A stretch of 64,000 nt of DNA from NCBI GenBank assembly GCA_965225945.1, contig CBDDBZ010000037.1, forward strand, positions 32,001 to 96,000. The letters are read 5' to 3'. The DNA is from Alphaproteobacteria bacterium (GTDB taxonomy: Bacteria > Pseudomonadota > Alphaproteobacteria > GCA-2731375). Position numbers and translations under genes: made by a program. The notes under the pieces are model-generated. The model made no database searches, was not told the DNA's origin, and saw only the letters and a list, made by a program, of their open reading frames with translations. Shown here piece by piece: positions 42,809-50,846 of this stretch (position 1 is the stretch's first letter; each line of letters opens with the position of its first letter).

Positions 42809-43009
42809 GATCAATGGAGAGCGTCGTTGCGAATGGGGCCATGCTGTTTGGCTGACGGAGCTTCCGAGAGAGATCGGCCCCACAATCGCGAATTGCGTGC
42901 ACTCGGGGACAATCGCGATTTATAACGCCCATGATGAATTCGAAGCTTGCCGGCCCCCCAAACGTGGTCGACTCCGCGCGCCCCCGAGGGCCTGATCGTG
43001 CCGCGTGCG

Positions 43010-43225
43010 CTCCCCGGGCGAGGTCGCGGCCGAGGCGATCGAGGCCGACGTGCACGTGGCCGGGGTCTGCAACAAGGCGCCGATGTCGACGTCGAAGCCG
43101 ATGTCGGCGAAGGCGATCCCCTCGGGCCCCCGCTCGTGCCCGTCCTGGCCCAGCTTGGCGACCGGCAGGCGGCGGCCCTCGCTGGCGGCGAAGCCCTCGA
43201 TCTCGCCCGCCACCGCCTCGAAGAC
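43010..43225. repeat. Diverged, partly inverted copy of the methylmalonyl-CoA mutase 3' region
   Basis: Encodes [35 protein letters not shown] on the minus strand and [15 protein letters not shown] on the plus strand, matching about 48930-49150. Confidence 0.85.
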
Positions 43226-43513
43226 GGCATCGCGCTCGCGGCGGTGGCGGCGCCGCGAGAAACCCACCGCGCGGGACGTCATCGATGCCCCGAGCCCAAG
43301 CAAAAGCATTCAGTTAGGCGGAAAAGCATTCAGTTTCGGGCGAAAATGAAGGCTCAATTCGTGAATTGTATGCATTAGTGATAGAGTGCCTGGAACGTCA
43401 TGTTAGCGGTGGTTCCAGGGTGCGCTTATATGGTGCTCTTTTTGAGCGGTCGGTGGCGGTTGGCTGACGGGATGCTTTTGGGCTTGGCTGATTTTGTTTC
43501 GCGCTGTGGCTAT

Positions 43514-44410
43514 TCAGTCGAGGGGCCGGTCATCGATCTGGAGCGGTTCGCCGGCGCGGTCGCGCATGAGCATGTCGTTCCAGTCCAGGCCGTCGAGGGC
43601 AGGGCGCAGGCGGACGACCCTGCTGTCGTTTCGGATGAGCCGTGCCGCGGCGTCATCGCCCTGGCGGGTGGCGTCGTAGGCGCAGAAGATCCGGCCGGGG
43701 TTCCAGGCCTCGATCCATTCGGGGAGGCTTGCGGTGGCGCCGCCGGTTGAGACCACGGCGCATCCCTTGCGCCCGGCCGGGACGAGGTGGAGGGAGAGGA
43801 CCGACAGGGCGTCGATTGCGTTCTTGGCGAGGATGACGGAGTTCGGCCAGTCGGGTTCCCACGACATCCAGAAGCCGCCGCGCGCGGCGGCGCCGGTCGG
43901 CGCGAGGCGGCGTGGCGCCGCGGCAGGGACGATCTCGGCGCCGAGAGCCTCGCCGGCCGCGTTTCGGCGGACGAACACGGCGTTGCCGTGGCGGTCGGCG
44001 TAGAGCAAGCCGAGGTCGCGGCACAGGGCGACGAGCACATCCGCGAGGCCGCGCTGCTCGACGAGGTAGCTCTGGATGGCGGGCCAGTGGCGGTCCGGGC
44101 ACGGCGGCTTCGGGTGGCGATCGGCCGGGAACCGGTCACGGCACGGCAGTTCCGAGAAGAAGCCGAGGGCCTCGGGCACGGTGCACCGGCAGGCATGGAT
44201 TACCAGGTCGATCGCTCCGCCCCCGCCCTCGCCGCGCAGATGTTCGTAGAACATAAAGCCGTTGATGCTGACGACGGATCCGGGACGCCTCCAGCGCGCG
44301 GCATCGGTGGGATCGCGGCGGTAGCCGAGGCGGCGGACGACGTCTTCGAGGGGATAGCCTCGCAGGGCCTCGGCCCGCACCCGCCGGTCCCAGAGGCGGG
44401 GACCATCCAT
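43514..44410 (-). CDS. DUF3991/TOPRIM primase-like protein
   Basis: GGGGAIDLVIH, YLVEQRGL..GLLYADRHGNAVF, AIDALS, STGG, CAYD and DWND; starts 2 bp after the istB stop. Confidence 0.85.
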   Translation of the reverse strand: MDGPRLWDRRVRAEALRGYPLEDVVRRLGYRRDPTDAARWRRPGSVVSINGFMFYEHLRGEGGGGAIDLVIHACRCTVPEALGFFSELPCRDRFPADRHPKPPCPDRHWPAIQSYLVEQRGLADVLVALCRDLGLLYADRHGNAVFVRRNAAGEALGAEIVPAAAPRRLAPTGAAARGGFWMSWEPDWPNSVILAKNAIDALSVLSLHLVPAGRKGCAVVSTGGATASLPEWIEAWNPGRIFCAYDATRQGDDAAARLIRNDSRVVRLRPALDGLDWNDMLMRDRAGEPLQIDDRPLD

Positions 44411-44412
44411 GG

Positions 44413-45201
44413 CTACGCCGGCGGCGGTTCCCCGCGGTCCTGCGCGCCGGCCTTGCCGGCTCGCCGCCGGCGGCGCTCGGCGCTGCGCTGCTTCTGGCGT
44501 TCCTCGGCCTCCTTGCGGCGCCAGGACTCGGCGTCGATGGCGATGATCTCGGCGTTGTGGACGAGGCGGTCGACCAGGGCGACGAGGCAGGCGGCGTTGG
44601 GGAAGGCCTCACCCCACTCGGCGAAGGGCCGGTTGGTGGTGATTATGGTGGAGTTCTGCTGGCTGCGGCTGGAGACGATGTTGAACAGCAGATCGGCATG
44701 GCGGTTGCTGTAGGACAGGTATCCGACCTCGTCGATCACCAGCAGGTGCTGGCGGGCGTAGAAGCGCAGCCTGCGCTGAAGCAGGGTGTCGCTGTCGAGG
44801 GCGGCGAGCTCGCCGAGCATGCTGGCCGCGGTGGCGAAGCGCACGGTGTGGCCCTCGAGGACGGCGCGGTGGGCGATATTGGCGGCGATGGTCGACTTGC
44901 CGACGCCGTTTGGGCCGACCAGGACGACGTTGGCGGCCTCGTTGAGGAACTCGAGGCTCATGAGATCCTCGACGGCCATGCGGTCGCAGCGGCGCGGCCA
45001 TGCCCAGTCGAAGTCGGCGAGCGGCTTGAACTGTCCGAGGCGGGCGTCGCCGAGGCGGCGCTTGAGGCTGCGGCTTCGCCGTTCCTCCTCTTCCCAGGCG
45101 ACCAGCGCAGCGGGCCAGTCATGCCCGGCGACCTCGCCCCAGTGGGCGGCGAGGCCGTGCAGGCCGAGCGCCCGGGCACGGCCCATGAGGGTATCGTTCA
45201 T
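44413..45201 (-). CDS. istB: IS21 helper AAA+ ATPase
   Basis: [31 protein letters not shown] and LVDRLVH. Confidence 0.95.
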
Positions 45202-46703
45202 TGCTCGCTGTCCTCCTCGGGTTCGCCGGCCAGCCCGTCGTATCCGACGAGGTCGTGATCGCGGACAGTGATGTCGCGCACTCTCGGATCGCCGGGCAGT
45301 TCGACGGGGATGGGCGGGGGTTGGTGCCGCAGCTCGCGCCGCCGGGTCAGGCTCAGGCGCACGGCGTTGGGATGGGGAACGTCCCGCTTCAGGGCCTCGT
45401 CGATGGCCGCCTCGAGCTCGGCGGCGCCGTAGGCGTCGAGGAGGCGCAACAGGGCGGCGACGGTGGCGCCTATATAGCCGCCGCGCTGGGCGGCCTCGGC
45501 GAGCAGGCGCTCGCTGTTGGGCGCGGCCTGGACCAGCCGGTCCTGGCCGCGAAGGCGGCGGGCATGGCTCTTGCGCCTGACCAGCTCGGCGATGTGCTCG
45601 GGGTTCTCGATGCGGGCCGCCTTGTCGAAGCTGCGCGGATGGCTGGCGATGACGTCCACACCGTCGAGGATGCGCACCTCGTCGAGCGTCGCGACCACGA
45701 CGAGGGTGCGCCGCACATGGGTGTGCGGCACGCTGTAATCGTTGAGATCGAAGCGGGCGTAGGGGGTCTTGCCGATGGCGACCTCGACCCGGTCGTGGTC
45801 GGGGAAGGGATCGCCGGGCAGCGCGATGAGAGAGCCGCGTTCCCGCTCGAAGGCCTCGCGCACGGTGATCGAGCGGTCTTCGGGCCAGGGGCGGTCGGCG
45901 GCGATGCCGTGGCACCAGGCCAGGGCCTGGGCGTTGAGATCGTCGATATCGCGCCACCGGCGGGCGGCGAAGAAGCTGGTCCGGACATAGCGAATCGCCC
46001 GCTCCACGCGCCCCTTCTCGTTGCCGCGCGCGACCGCGACGGGCTTGGGCAGGAAGTGGTAGTGGCCGGCGAGGTCGAGGATCCGGGGATTGAACCGGAT
46101 GGCGGCGCCGCGGCGCTCCAGCACGACGCTCTTCAGGTTGTCGTACCAGAGCTCGCGGGGCACGCCCTGCCACGCCTCGAAGGCTTCGACATGGCCGCGC
46201 AGGAAGTTGCTCATCCCGGCGTCGAGGTAGAAGCGCAGGAAGATCCGCCGCGAGTAGCTGAGAACCATCACGAAGCCCATCAGGCGGCGCTCCGCGCGGC
46301 CGATCGTCACCTTGCCGAAGTGTCCCCAGTCGACCTGGGCCTGCTCGCCGGGAAGGGTCTTGAGGCGCAGATAGGCCTCGGCCACGGGCCTGGGCCTGAA
46401 GTGGCTGAGCAGATGACGGAAGTGGTCGCCGCCGCCCGGATAGCCGCGTTCGCGCACCATCTGGTAGAGCCGGCTGGCGGGCAGCGTCGGCCAGGATGCC
46501 AGCGTCTCGGCGATGAACGGCACGTATGGATCGATCATCGACGGCCTGGGCGACCTCGCGTCCCGGGGCTCGCCGGCCGCGGTGAGGAGGCGCTCGACGG
46601 TGTAGCGATGCACGCCGAGCTGGCGTGTGATCGTGCCGACCGTCCACTTCTCGACGTGATACAGGCGCAGGATCTCCGCGCGGGTCTCCTTGTCGATGGT
46701 CAT
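45198..46703 (-). CDS. istA: IS21 transposase
   Basis: [24 protein letters not shown] and [12 protein letters not shown]. Confidence 0.95.
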
Positions 46704-47140
46704 CTCACCCCCTTTCCCGTCGGGCGCAGCCCCGGATAGACCGCCTGCCCGCAGAACCGGCCGCAGCGATCGCAGCGGAAGACCCTGGCGGGCCGCTCGT
46801 GCCCGAAGGGCCGTGTTCCGGGACGCCCTGCCGGCGTCCGCGCCACAACAGGACGCCGCCGCGCGGCGGTCAAAGGGTGATGCGTCACTTCCTGCCCGCG
46901 GCGCCGATTCACCGGCGTCCGGCGCCGCCGGCGTTCGCGATAGCGCCGCTGGCGCTCAGCATGCTTGTGACGGCCCCGCCGGCTGTTCTGGTAGCGCTGC
47001 CCGGCATGGCGCTGCGATCGCCGGCGCACCCGATCGCTGCAGCTCCGTGAACAGTAGATGTTGCCGTGGTCGCAGTGCCGGCAGAGAACCACCTGTTGAT
47101 GGCACGAGGCGCAGTTGAACAGGCGGGCGGTGTTCTTCAT
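46700..47140 (-). CDS. Small basic Cys-rich (Zn-finger-like) protein coupled to istA
   Basis: CASC-x6-CRHC-x6-CSRSC, an Arg-rich helix and C-terminal CDRCGRFC; the stop overlaps the istA start (ATGA). Confidence 0.75.
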
Positions 47141-47560
47141 CGCGCAGCCGATGAGAACGGGGTGGACCCACGCCCAAACCCGCACGATACTGCGCATATG
47201 GGTCGTGCCTTGCATGGCTCGGGGGGTGCGGTGCCGGTCGTTGCCAGCAAGCAAACGGGGCCGGCGCCGCATCGTTCTCAGCGGCCCGAGTGTACTCCCG
47301 CGGCTCCCCTTGTCAGGTCCGCGGAACCGCCGCCGCCAGCCAGCCAAAACAGGAATCGAGACGCCCGCCCGCGGTGGATAAGCAGCCCGCCGCCGCCAGA
47401 CTCTTGGCGGTCGCTGCGGCGGGCTACTTACCCACCGCTGCGCCGAGCCAACTCCCGCCTGCAAACCACGCAGCTACAGCGCCACGATGCCCGATGTCGC
47501 TGAAATCACCATCTAAGCGCGGTTTTTCATCGCCACCGACAAACGTCAGGAGGTTGGGTT

Positions 47561-48499
47561 ATGGACGGCAAGGGTTTCCAGGTGTGGCTTTCGGCGGCGC
47601 GCGGGCTGACGCGCGCGCAGCGGCGCGAGGCGCTCGCGGTGCTGTCGGGCCGGAGCGAGGGCGAGGCATCGAAGGCCGCGATCGAGCTTGGTGTGGACGA
47701 GGCCCGGCGCTGTCCGCACTGCGCGAGCGAAGGGGCGGTTTCGCGCGGTATGGCGCGGGGTCTGCGGCGCTACCAGTGCAAGGGCTGCGGCAGGACCTTC
47801 AACGCGCTGAGCGGTACGCCGCTGTCGGGCTTGCACCACAAGGAACGCTGGCTGTCGTTCGGGGCGTCGCTGGCGAAGGGGGAGACGGTGAAGGCCTCGG
47901 CGGCGCGCTGCGACGTGGCGGTGAGCACGGCGTTCCGCTGGCGTCACCGGTTTCTGGCGGCGGCGCGGAGCGATTCGGAGGTGCTCAAGGGGATCGTGGA
48001 AGCGGACGAGACCTACGTCCTGGAGAGCCGGAAGGGCGCGCGCGGGCTGGGGCGCAAGGCACGGCGGCGGGGCGGCAAGGCGAAGAAGCGCGGCCTCTCG
48101 CGCGAGCAGGTACCGGTTCTCATGGCGGCGGACCGGAGCGGAACGACGGTCAGCGCGGTGCTGCCCAGGGTCGATGCGGCGGCGCTCACGGCTGCCCTCG
48201 ACCCGGTGGTCGCGAAGGACGCCCTGCTGGTCTCCGACGGCGGCGCGAGCTACCCACCGTGCGCCGCCGCGCTCGGGGTGAGCCACGAAGCACTCAACCG
48301 CTCGATGGGGGAACGGGTTCGGGGCGATCTGCATGTGCAGACGGTGAACAGCCGCCACAGCCGGTTGAAGGACTTCCTGCGTCCCCGCCGCGGCATCGCC
48401 ACCCGCTATCTGGACAACTACCTGAGCTGGTTCCACCTCGTCGGCCTCGCCCCCGGCGCCAATGACCGAGCCTGCCTCGCCGCCGCCGTAACAAGGTGA
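47561..48499 (+). CDS. IS1595-family transposase
   Basis: CPHC..CKGC Zn ribbon; VEADETY, LVSDG, HVQTVN and GIATRYLDNY. Confidence 0.95.
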   Translation: MDGKGFQVWLSAARGLTRAQRREALAVLSGRSEGEASKAAIELGVDEARRCPHCASEGAVSRGMARGLRRYQCKGCGRTFNALSGTPLSGLHHKERWLSFGASLAKGETVKASAARCDVAVSTAFRWRHRFLAAARSDSEVLKGIVEADETYVLESRKGARGLGRKARRRGGKAKKRGLSREQVPVLMAADRSGTTVSAVLPRVDAAALTAALDPVVAKDALLVSDGGASYPPCAAALGVSHEALNRSMGERVRGDLHVQTVNSRHSRLKDFLRPRRGIATRYLDNYLSWFHLVGLAPGANDRACLAAAVTR

Positions 48500-48695
48500 C
48501 GCATACAATTCACGAATTGAGCCAAAATGAATGCCTCATGAATGCGATTTTGGCCGCCGGAGGGCCCCTCGACACACTCATAAAGCAAAATACGGGGGCG
48601 GGTCGCGAGCTTCGTGGTCCCATACCGGAGAGCTTGGCGCCACGAGGCCAAATCGGCGCTCCGTCGAGCCGACCCACGGGTCGAATCGCCGTCCC

Positions 48696-50846
48696 CTACG
48701 CCGCCTTTCGCTCGCCGGCGAGCAGGGCGAGGATCTCGCGGGCGGCGGTGGGGATGAGGGTGCCGGGGCCGTAGACGGCGGCGACGCCGGCCTCATGCAA
48801 AAAGCCATGGTCGCGGGTCGGGATGACGCCGCCGCAGACCACCAGAATCCCGGCCCCGCCCTCGGCCCGGAGCGCCTCGATCAGCTCCGGCACCAAGGTC
48901 TTGTGGCCCGCCGCCTGGGTCGAGACGCCGACCACGTGCACGTCGTTCTCGATCGCCTCGGCCGCGACCTCGCCCGGGGTCTGGAACAGGGCGCCGATAT
49001 CGACGTCGAAGCCGATGTCGGCGAAGGCGGTGGCGATCACCTTGGCGCCGCGGTCGTGGCCGTCCTGGCCCAGCTTGGCGACCAGCAGGCGGGGCCGGCG
49101 GCCCTCGCTGGCGGCGAAGGCCTCGATCTCGGCCCTCACCGCCTCGAATTCGCCGTCGCCCTCGAAAGCCTGGCCGTAGACCCCGGAGATCGAGCGGATC
49201 TCGGCCCGGTAACGGCCGAAGACGTCCTCCATGGCCAGGCTCATCTCGCCGAGGGTGGCCCGTGCGCGGGCCGCCTCGACGGAGAGCGCCAGCAGATTGG
49301 CCTCGCCCTGGGCACCGTTGCGCAGCGAATTGAGCGCCGCCACCACCGCCGCCTCGTCGCGGCCCTCACGGAGCTGGGCGAGCCGCGCGATCTGGCGCTC
49401 GCGCACCTCGGTATTGTCGATCTCGCGGACCTCGACCTCCTCGCCTGTCTCGCCGAGGTATTTGTTGACGCCGACGACGACCTCCTCGCCGCGCTCGATT
49501 CCAGCCTGGCGCCGCGCCGCCGCCGCCTCGATTTCGAGCTTCGGCATGCCGGCCTCGACGGCGCGCGTCATGCCGCCCATGGCCTCGACCTCCTCGATCA
49601 GCGACCAGGCGTGGCGCGCCAGCGCGTCGGTCAGCGCCTCGATATAATAGCTGCCGCCCAGGGGATCGACGACGCGGGCCACGCCGGTCTCCTCGGAGAG
49701 GATCAATTGGGTGTTGCGGGCCACGGTGGCGGCGAAGTCGGAGGGCAGCGCGATCGCCTCGTCGAAGGAGTTGGTATGCAAGCTCTGCGTGCCGCCCAGG
49801 ACCGCGGCCAGCGCCTCGTAGGCGGTGCGCACGATGTTGTTGTGGGGCGATTGCTCGGTCAGGCTGACGCCGCTGGTTTGGCAATGGGTCCGCAGCATCA
49901 AGGAGCGGGGCGAGGTTGGCTCGAAACCCGCGACGATGCGGGCCCACAGCAGCCGGGCCGCGCGCAGCTTGGCGATCTCCATGAAGAAATTCATGCCGAT
50001 GCCGAAGAAGAAGGAGAGGCGGCCGGCGAAGGCGTCGATCGCCAGGCCGCGATCCGTCGCCGCGCGTACGTATTCCAGGCCGTCGGCCAGCGTGAAGGCG
50101 AGTTCCTGCACCGCCGTGGCACCGGCCTCCCCCATGTGGTAGCCGGAGATCGAGATCGAGTTGAAGCGCGGCATCTCGGCGGCCGTGTATTCGATCACGT
50201 CGGCGACGATCCGCATCGAGGGCGCCGGGGGATAGATATAGGTGTTGCGGACCATGAATTCCTTGAGGATGTCGTTCTGGATGGTCCCGGAAAGCTTTGC
50301 CCTGGGCGTCCCCTGCTCCTCGCCGGCGACGATGAAGGCCGCCAGGGTCGGCAGCACGGCGCCGTTCATGGTCATCGAGACGCTCATGCCCTGAAGCGCG
50401 ATCCCCTCGAAGAGGCGCTTCATGTCCTCGACCGAGTCGATCGCCACGCCGGCCTTGCCGACGTCGCCCACCACGCGCTCGTGATCGGAATCGTAGCCCC
50501 GGTGGGTCGCCAGGTCGAAGGCGACGGAAAGCCCGGTCTGCCCGCCCGCGATGGCGCGACGATAGAAGGCGTTGGAATCTTCCGCCGTCGAGAAACCGGC
50601 GTATTGGCGGATCGTCCACGGCCGGTTGGCGTACATCGTCGCGCGGATGCCCCGGGTGAACGGCGCCAGGCCGGGCAGCGTGTCGCAGCCCTCCAGCCCC
50701 TCCAGGTCGGCCGCCGTGTAGAGCGGCTTGACGGCGATGCCTTCCGCCGTCTCCCACTCGAGCTCGAGGTCGAGGCACTCCCGCTTCAGCTCCTTGGCCG
50801 CCAGCCGGCGCCAGGCCTCGAGACCGATTCCCGCATCCTCGCTCAT
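48696..50846 (-). CDS. scpA: Methylmalonyl-CoA mutase (B12-dependent)
   Basis: [33 protein letters not shown] and B12-binding [11 protein letters not shown]. Confidence 0.97.

Follow-up and report, generated by a model that had tools for sequence, protein, structure and literature searches.

A four-gene IS21-family element with a primase-derived protein in an alphaproteobacterial genome

The stretch of DNA analysed here, hereafter the window, comprises 64,000 nucleotides of an alphaproteobacterial genome (assembly GCA_965225945.1, contig CBDDBZ010000037.1, positions 32,001 to 96,000). At 43401-47541 it contains a 4,141-bp element of the insertion sequence (IS) family IS21 with four tightly coupled genes on the minus strand. 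According to the list of open reading frames (ORFs) and their translations, these genes encode, in order, a Cys-rich, zinc-finger-like (Zn) protein, IstA, IstB and a protein with DUF3991 and TOPRIM domains, which we call the primase-like protein. The tips of the element are TGT (43401-43403) and ACA (47539-47541), and the heptamer AACGTCA flanks it on both sides as a 7-bp duplication. Both ends carry GGTGGCG and GCGCTTAnATGGTG motifs, and the terminal inverted repeats (TIRs) are imperfect; the matches returned by a repeat finder were largely chance GC-rich ones. On the plus strand, 46700-46703 and 45198-45201 read TCAT, which is ATGA on the gene strand, so that stop and start codons overlap at both positions, and the istB stop (44413-44415) is separated from the next ATG (44410-44408) by two bases (44411-44412). 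An earlier sequence-only reading of the window had described TGT..ACA ends, a perfect 7-bp target-site duplication, two ATGA overlaps and a 2-bp gap, and the ends, the duplication and all three junctions are present where it placed them.

The element belongs to the IS21 family. Both IstA and IstB pass the NCBIfam equivalog cut-offs ('IS21 family transposase' and 'IS21-like element helper ATPase IstB'), and the TGT/ACA tips are identical in 20 of the 21 copies that we found in the source genome. IS21-family target duplications measure 4-8 bp, and the element agrees with this short-duplication pattern, with 5-7 bp in 17 of the 21 copies and a documented empty site. It departs from the family in the number of its genes, since four conserved ORFs lie between the ends in place of two; recent structural work describes IS21-family members as consisting of two ORFs (PMC10122671).

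The source assembly (6.27 Mb, 39 contigs) was examined for further copies. Nineteen of the 21 copies with the same ends are uninterrupted and 99.4-100% identical, and two are broken by other insertions. The direct repeats lie at 16 different sites; the four copies without direct repeats include one with an altered tip. A frame-breaking indel in one ORF was found in 4 of the 19 uninterrupted copies. In addition, a 6-bp in-frame indel at 44228-44233, in the Gly-rich N-terminal motif of the primase-like gene, divides the copies into 12 that have the six bases and 7 that lack them.

In the window, the insertion went into an IS1595 leader. About 55 other copies of IS1595 in the genome represent the empty site with a single AACGTCA, and two copies, that of the window and one on contig C18, carry the element. 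Because two IS1595 copies bear the insertion at the same site, the nested pair must itself have been copied or moved. The empty arrangement was also found in public data, where contigs of two RNA-library runs join 43393 to 47542 and skip 4,148 bases, and one 4,171-nt public contig spans exactly 43401-47541 with a different flank; near-identical sequence occurs in 20 public runs from 8 studies. There are RNA-library contigs that span the whole element, which were not counted as evidence of expression since contigs cannot show transcription. The element has been recently active, and its four genes move together. The sequence-only reading had proposed that the four genes entered the IS1595 leader as one unit, which the 21 same-ended copies and the empty sites bear out; the 7-bp duplication that it described holds for the window copy, but across the genome copies the length is 5-7 bp and not always 7. 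The features of the element are listed in Table 1.

Table 1. Annotated features of the IS21-family element and the duplications that flank it (window coordinates)
Feature	Position	Strand	Basis
Target-site duplication AACGTCA, beside the 3' (right inverted repeat, IRR) end	43394-43400	.	Single heptamer at ~55 empty IS1595 sites
Right (3') end: non-coding tail, imperfect TIR starting TGT, GCGCTTAnATGGTG common with the other end	43401-43513	-	
DUF3991/TOPRIM protein, 298 aa, DnaG-primase fold, K196 and T248	43514-44410	-	Pfam, AlphaFold2, Foldseek, motif alignment
IstB, AAA+ helper ATPase, 262 aa	44413-45201	-	PF01695 1.7e-53; NF038214 204.3 bits (cut-off 200)
IstA, DDE transposase, 501 aa	45198-46703	-	HTH_23, rve, Mu-transpos_C_2; NF033546 249.1 bits (cut-off 160)
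Cys-rich (zinc-finger-like) protein, 146 aa from the conserved ATG	46700-47140	-	ORF, conserved start, invariant Cys
Conserved leader, putative 5' untranslated region	47141-47288	-	Nucleotide identity to relatives 0.78-0.88
Sigma-70-like promoter, CTGACA-16-TACACT	47289-47316	-	Motif search; hexamers kept in L009, L011, L027, L030
Left (5') end: TIR ending ACA on the + strand, plus 26-nt inverted repeat	47317-47541	-	
Target-site duplication AACGTCA, second copy	47542-47548	.	Joint 43393 to 47542 in public contigs

The primase-like protein

We searched the last protein of the element against Pfam, which returned DUF3991 (36.6 bits against a cut-off of 24.5, E = 6.4e-9) and Toprim_2 (22.9 bits against a cut-off of 22.1, E = 1.1e-4). 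An AlphaFold2 model built from a 70-sequence alignment had a mean predicted local distance difference test score (pLDDT) of 85.8 and a predicted template modelling score of 0.83. When this model was compared with the Protein Data Bank (PDB) by Foldseek, the best matches were all DnaG, headed by the zinc-binding and RNA polymerase domains of the Aquifex enzyme (2au3, E = 1e-5) and continuing with the E. coli structures 1dde and 1eqn, and after DnaG came T7 gp4 and Twinkle. The matches to the DnaG cores, with a probability of 1.0 and template modelling (TM) scores of 0.33-0.44, take in both the TOPRIM fold and the N-terminal RNA-polymerase subdomain. In addition, the family profile matches E. 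coli DnaG (1eqn/1dd9) with an E value of about 0.005, and in this alignment the family stretch 'LaesAiDAlS' falls on DnaG VVEGYMDVVA, and 'cgfdadrtGdeaA' falls on CCYDGDRAGRDAA. Because of this alignment, K196 can be placed at the position of the TOPRIM Glu and T248 at that of the second Asp of the DxD motif. The window translation contains GEGGGGAIDL, LAKNAIDALS, YDATRQGD and DWNDML, and its DxD motif reads D246-A-T248; the conserved TOPRIM Glu and the DxD motif of active primases are thus both lacking. The N-terminal domain also differs from the CHC2 zinc-binding pattern, since the aligned stretch GEGGGGAIDL is without Cys ligands in the whole family.

To place these changes, we counted the residues in a near clade formed by the window and 13 near loci, in which 13 rows have a residue at the Glu position and 12 at the second Asp. 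The Glu position is occupied by K (5), G (5) or D (3) and by E in none of the 13 rows, and the second Asp position by T (10) or P (2) and by D in none of the 12. Outside the near clade, the Glu and both Asp are kept in all 67 relatives with a residue there. A stretch 'F+GMAPGSRK', which the other relatives keep, is absent from the near clade, and the GGGGAIDL N-terminal domain and the DWND motif are kept throughout the family. The last gene is derived from a DnaG-type primase of mobile elements, with a zinc-less N-terminal domain, DUF3991 and TOPRIM, and, as judged from the alignments, the changes in its catalytic residues are ancient and clade-wide. Because the Glu, the second Asp and the GSRK-type motif have all been lost, the near-clade protein cannot be a primase. 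The sequence-only reading had noted the change of Glu to Lys and of Asp to Thr beside a retained DWND and GGGGAIDL; the DnaG alignment confirmed these assignments, and the conservation check that it had suggested revealed the loss of both residues across the clade.

Selective constraints on the four genes were estimated from pairwise ratios of nonsynonymous to synonymous substitution rates (dN/dS; Nei-Gojobori method, NG86) among near-clade elements. The values were 0.35-0.64 for the primase-like gene (15 pairs, with the frameshifted locus L030 left out), 0.27-0.60 for the Zn ORF, 0.19-0.40 for istA and 0.17-0.34 for istB, and all four ratios are probably inflated by high-GC codon bias. On these estimates, the primase-like gene is the least constrained of the four, yet it is under purifying selection. 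There are 29 invariant columns over 26 primase-like sequences, and full-length homologues with 59-85% identity form dozens of 90%-identity clusters, many of them on contigs that, at about 4 kb, match an IS in length. Neutral decay, which the sequence-only reading had named as a finding that would speak against its proposal, was not seen, as dN/dS is below 1 and the indels are in frame.

Orphan copies of the primase-like gene, 64% identical to that of the window, were found elsewhere in the same genome at C30:9340-10134 (L101:6341-7135) and C38:350-1144. Their homology begins only after residue 43, and neither IstA nor IstB lies alongside them; upstream of the C30 orphan lies an ORF with a UPF0236 match. 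A screen of 400 further genomes, each representing a species of the same class, detected the primase-like protein in 2, and there only as C-terminal remnants of about 40 residues.

Association with IS21 and histories of the accessory genes

The closest relatives of the element occur in two metagenome-assembled genomes (MAGs) of Alphaproteobacteria, in one MAG labelled Pseudomonadales and on several metagenome contigs. Their IstA proteins are 76-83% identical to that of the window, and the order Zn-IstA-IstB-primase is the same. In all 9 near loci with enough DNA, IstB lies directly upstream of the primase-like gene with a gap of 2-12 bp, so that the gene is not absent from close relatives, as the earlier reading had allowed that it might prove to be. 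A profile scan of metagenome contigs returned 80 loci, mostly 30-38% identical in the primase and 23-32% in IstA and IstB, and the distant loci have the same IstA-IstB-primase order as the window. Among the 46 far loci whose upstream DNA exceeds 900 bp, 45 have IstB next to the primase gene (37 by strict parsing and 8 by tblastn), and none was found at L093; the junction is usually a 4-bp overlap (gap -4). The primase site of this far clade is intact, with E and DxD.

Five-gene metagenomic elements of IS21 type, 4.84-5.08 kb long, were observed among these loci (L038-L099, e.g. L047:276-4970 and L053:2071-6992). Upstream of istA they have an ORF of 216 aa without known identity and a ParB/KorB-like gene, which are followed by IstA, IstB and the DUF3991/TOPRIM protein. 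The far elements end in IS21-style terminal repeats of 45-98 bp with internal repeats, and the primase gene is enclosed by them.

The histories of IstB and the primase were compared over 41 elements, 35 of them in the far clade. Patristic distances of IstB and Toprim were correlated with r = 0.99 over the 41 rows and r = 0.88 within the far clade, and none of 2000 permutations reached either value. The two trees have 17 of 38 bipartitions in common, and most of the rest are weakly supported. The co-phylogeny that the sequence-only reading had asked about is therefore present, with the primase-like gene co-diverging with IstB (r = 0.99), and its view of the extra genes as parts of the unit is upheld, since both are stable and conserved and not one-off cargo. 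With the whole element as query in near mode, a plasmid search matched nothing beyond the istA/istB genes of two betaproteobacterial plasmids, at 73-76%.

Predicted proteins that join parts of the system were also observed. In P0241 (656 aa), IstA residues 1-390, which share 59% identity with the IstA encoded at L047, run into the primase module and no IstB part is present, and P0277 and P0001 have IstB and primase-module parts in one predicted protein.

The first gene of the element was analysed in the same way. Its product begins with CxxC-x6-CxxC-x6-C-x3-C, continues with a basic helical hairpin and ends in a C-terminal CxxCxxxC; the arrangement of Cys might be read as MYND/HIT-like. The family of this ORF comprises 218 clusters, in which 7 Cys are invariant and 2 more are at least 90% conserved. 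The AlphaFold2 model has a pLDDT of 72.9, and its best Foldseek match in the PDB, YacG, is not significant (E = 1.4). No Pfam, NCBIfam or PHROG family was matched, and the Atlas clusters are named only 'hypothetical'. The ORF was found in 3 of the 400 genomes of the class. Elements with Zn-IstA-IstB and no primase exist on a plasmid of Aromatoleum aromaticum, where IstA is 63% identical to that of the window, and on a 3.5-kb contig of another genome, where it is 50% identical. The Zn and primase accessory genes have separate histories. Within this IS21 subgroup, the Cys-rich protein would be the older accessory, distinct from the primase, and its most likely role is regulation through nucleic-acid binding.

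A tree that included plasmid outgroups nested the near-clade primases with TniA/TniB-type homologues, with 99% support in the Shimodaira-Hasegawa-like approximate likelihood ratio test (SH-aLRT), and apart from the far IS21 clade. Constraining all IS21-linked primases to a single clade lowered the log-likelihood by 40.8 units (approximately unbiased (AU) test, p = 0.013), a value obtained from a quick tree and for a group defined after the tree had been seen. The likeliest scenario is that the Zn-IstA-IstB subgroup acquired its primase from a helicase-primase or plasmid pool and that catalysis was lost afterwards, and likewise that the other IS21 lineage holds its intact primase gene independently. 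The Tni-type element is represented by L029:646-4984 (also L031 and L032, and parts at L028 and L035), which encodes an rve transposase of 512 aa, an AAA_22 TniB-like ATPase, a helicase and a primase; the helicase is of the AAA_25 DnaB/RepA-like type with a winged helix, and the active site of the primase is intact.

The module is also common outside transposons, with 8,090 representatives at E <= 1e-3 and 688 at E <= 1e-30, where it stands alone beside type IV secretion genes, is fused to MobV relaxases or lies inside very large proteins. An example is a 2,926-bp Paracoccus plasmid (L106), whose sole annotated gene encodes a MobV relaxase fused to the DUF3991/TOPRIM module. The source genome itself contains a second, canonical two-gene IS21 in about 45 copies (e.g. 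C38:9132-11352 and C39:101778-103998), whose IstA and IstB are about 31% and 35% identical to those of the window; no primase-like gene was detected beside it with the window protein as query.

Comparison with known systems and candidate roles

Like the canonical elements IS21 and IS5376, the window element has a DDE transposase IstA with an N-terminal helix-turn-helix and a Mu-type C-terminal domain, an AAA+ IstB, the order istA then istB with a stop/start overlap, TGT...ACA ends and duplications of 5-7 bp. Unlike them, it has four genes in 4,141 bp, istA and istB being preceded by a Cys-rich ORF and followed by a primase-fold ORF, and it has an internal sigma-70-like promoter. With the DnaG-type primases of plasmids and conjugative elements ('DUF3991 and TOPRIM domain-containing protein', MobV fusions), the last protein shares the three-part layout and the fold, at 25-32% identity to the plasmid primases over about 90% of the length; however, it is without the Glu, the second Asp and the GSRK-type motif, and its gene lies inside an IS and is coupled to istB, whereas theirs lie by transfer genes or are fused to relaxases. 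As in the Tn7-like and Tn5053-like transposons (TnsD/TniQ, TnsE), a DDE transposase and an AAA+ regulator are accompanied by further element-encoded proteins, but no TniQ, TnsD or TnsE homologue was found among the Pfam or NCBIfam matches of the element's proteins. A similar architecture is that of the five-gene metagenomic IS21 elements, in which a gene for the primase module likewise follows istB inside the terminal repeats. These differ in that IstA and IstB are only 23-32% identical to those of the window, in having a ParB-like gene and orf216 where the window has the Zn ORF, and in an intact primase site, and the tree does not join the two primase clades as sisters. The sequence-only reading had suggested an undescribed subtype, and we found no description of an IS21 with a DUF3991/TOPRIM gene in the searchable full-text literature; IS catalogues lay outside this search, so that prior cataloguing is possible. 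According to a 2023 survey, IS21 has not been reported with a target selector (PMC10293859).

The explanation that we consider somewhat more likely than not is that the window carries an active IS21 unit in which the primase-derived protein with its dead site acts as a non-catalytic accessory subunit of transposition. Transposition itself would be carried out by IstA and IstB in the manner of canonical IS21, and the left-end promoter probably drives all four genes as a single operon, with translation coupled at the ATGA overlaps and the 2-bp gap. Because the near-clade protein cannot make primers, it probably acts through binding, to DNA structures, to replisome partners or to the IstA/IstB complex. 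It may have kept DNA- or replisome-binding surfaces that link the IstA/IstB complex to forks or gaps, or the link may instead be to the repair and replication of the strand-transfer product; in either case, integration or its repair would be coupled to replication intermediates. Judging from the intact enzymes of the far clade and the helicase-primase pair of the Tni-type element, the ancestral role may have been the priming of DNA synthesis on a transposition intermediate or on an intermediate of element-borne replication. More tentatively, the DnaG-type primase module may be a co-evolving third core part of IS21 lineages that couples transposition to priming, recruited more than once and also by TniA/TniB-type elements, with the window protein as a structural adaptor; we hold this wider version to be possible but doubtful.

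Several observations weigh against a role of the protein in transposition. No shared target motif was seen by eye among the 16 insertion sites, which is also the outcome of the search for target bias that the sequence-only reading had recommended, and the orientation of the copies relative to the local GC skew showed no bias (10 of 21), though the skew is weak and the comparison uninformative. Because Zn-bearing IS21 elements without it exist, the primase gene is dispensable for IS21 transposition as such, and the same genome has its ~45 copies of the two-gene IS21. The gene has the highest dN/dS of the four, which fits relaxed constraint, and the fusions P0241, P0277 and P0001 could be artefacts of deletion or gene calling. 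This analysis gave no direct support for the role; a predicted complex of IstB with the primase-like protein scored 0.00 with two alignments, which counts neither for nor against it.

The gene could instead be a passenger with an unrelated job, such as establishment in a new host or the countering of host defence, as is known for leading-region genes of conjugative plasmids. Its closest non-transposon homologues are indeed plasmid proteins beside type IV secretion genes, fused to MobV or multi-domain, the far-clade IS21 elements carry in their ParB-like gene another typical plasmid or phage gene, and IS21 elements function without a primase gene. However, the fixed position and orientation of the gene and its coupling to istB (the gap is mostly -4 among far loci and measures 2-12 bp in the near loci), its co-divergence with IstB over deep divergence, its retention after the catalytic residues were lost and the existence of the IstA fusion P0241 are more typical of a subunit than of cargo, and we regard the passenger explanation as unlikely. 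An inhibitory role for the primase-like protein, the Zn protein or both, in which an inactive mimic titrates IstB, IstA or the ends and limits copy number, would suit the place of the primase-like gene at the end of the operon, the strongly basic helical hairpin of the Zn protein, which is apt for nucleic-acid binding, and the general experience that catalytically dead enzyme derivatives often act as inhibitors. Yet the element has reached 21 genome copies, and the primase site looks active in most relatives, which excludes inhibition as the ancestral role; negative regulation therefore appears distinctly improbable.

That the gene is a decaying relic of a former primase with no present function seems to us the least credible of these explanations, with very little probability. 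The lost catalytic residues and the dN/dS value would be expected of a relic, as would the free variation at the Glu position (K, G and D, and also N or A in a separate alignment) and the existence of C-terminal remnants and a truncated orphan copy. Against this stand dN/dS values below 1 in 15 of 15 pairs when the frameshifted L030 is set aside, indels that stay in frame, full-length proteins of 59-85% identity across dozens of 90%-identity clusters, and W, F and G motifs that are invariant throughout, the N-terminal domain included.

The control of transposases by AAA+ ATPases is studied, structurally and biochemically, with IS21 as a model, and IS21 is presented as having two genes. That a primase-fold protein has accompanied IstB through deep divergence suggests an unrecognised link from this kind of transposition to DNA priming or replication. 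The protein is fused to IstA in some elements and catalytically dead in a plainly active one. If the more tentative version, with the primase module as a third core part, is true, the window protein would be the first accessory or target-coupling factor that an IS21 element itself encodes. As a test system the element is clean, with four genes in 4.1 kb and many identical copies, and its three-gene relatives (no primase) and five-gene relatives (primase with an intact active site) are natural comparators. Annotation will probably break such units of 4-5 kb up into 'IS21 plus hypothetical proteins'.

Leader and neighbouring sequences

The sigma-70-like promoter is the sole site of its kind in the region, where 0.1 would be expected, and the four relatives named in Table 1 retain its two hexamers. 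Exceptional conservation of the leader was considered and rejected, since its core is about as conserved as istA DNA: the identity of the roughly 150 nt before the first ATG is 0.78-0.88, compared with 0.82-0.85 for istA. A long-range stem, GAGAACG/CGUUCUC, ends 13 nt upstream of the ATG. Only 1 of 50 pairs in the RNAalifold structure of the leader is compensatory, the fold of the single sequence reaches z = -1.58 and is matched by 13 of 200 shuffles, the best Rfam match is a microRNA model with E = 0.08 and nothing meaningful was found there, and a distant-mode search of PLSDB plasmids with the leader gave no match. A structured RNA in the leader is thus weakly supported. The sequence-only reading had supposed that the leader could hold regulatory sites or an RNA; the first part gained a conserved putative promoter, and the second has only the weak support just described. 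In the left end, a 26-nt inverted repeat with 88% complementarity and a 16-nt spacer (47371-47438) is recognisable in L011 but not in L009 or L027.

The host IS1595, of which the genome has about 57 copies, occupies 43310-43400 and 47542-48530, with its transposase at 47561-48499 on the plus strand. As read from the translations, a full-length methylmalonyl-CoA-mutase-like ORF lies to its right (48696-50846, minus strand), and a degraded partial duplicate of the C-terminal part of that ORF lies to its left (42920-43309, minus strand).

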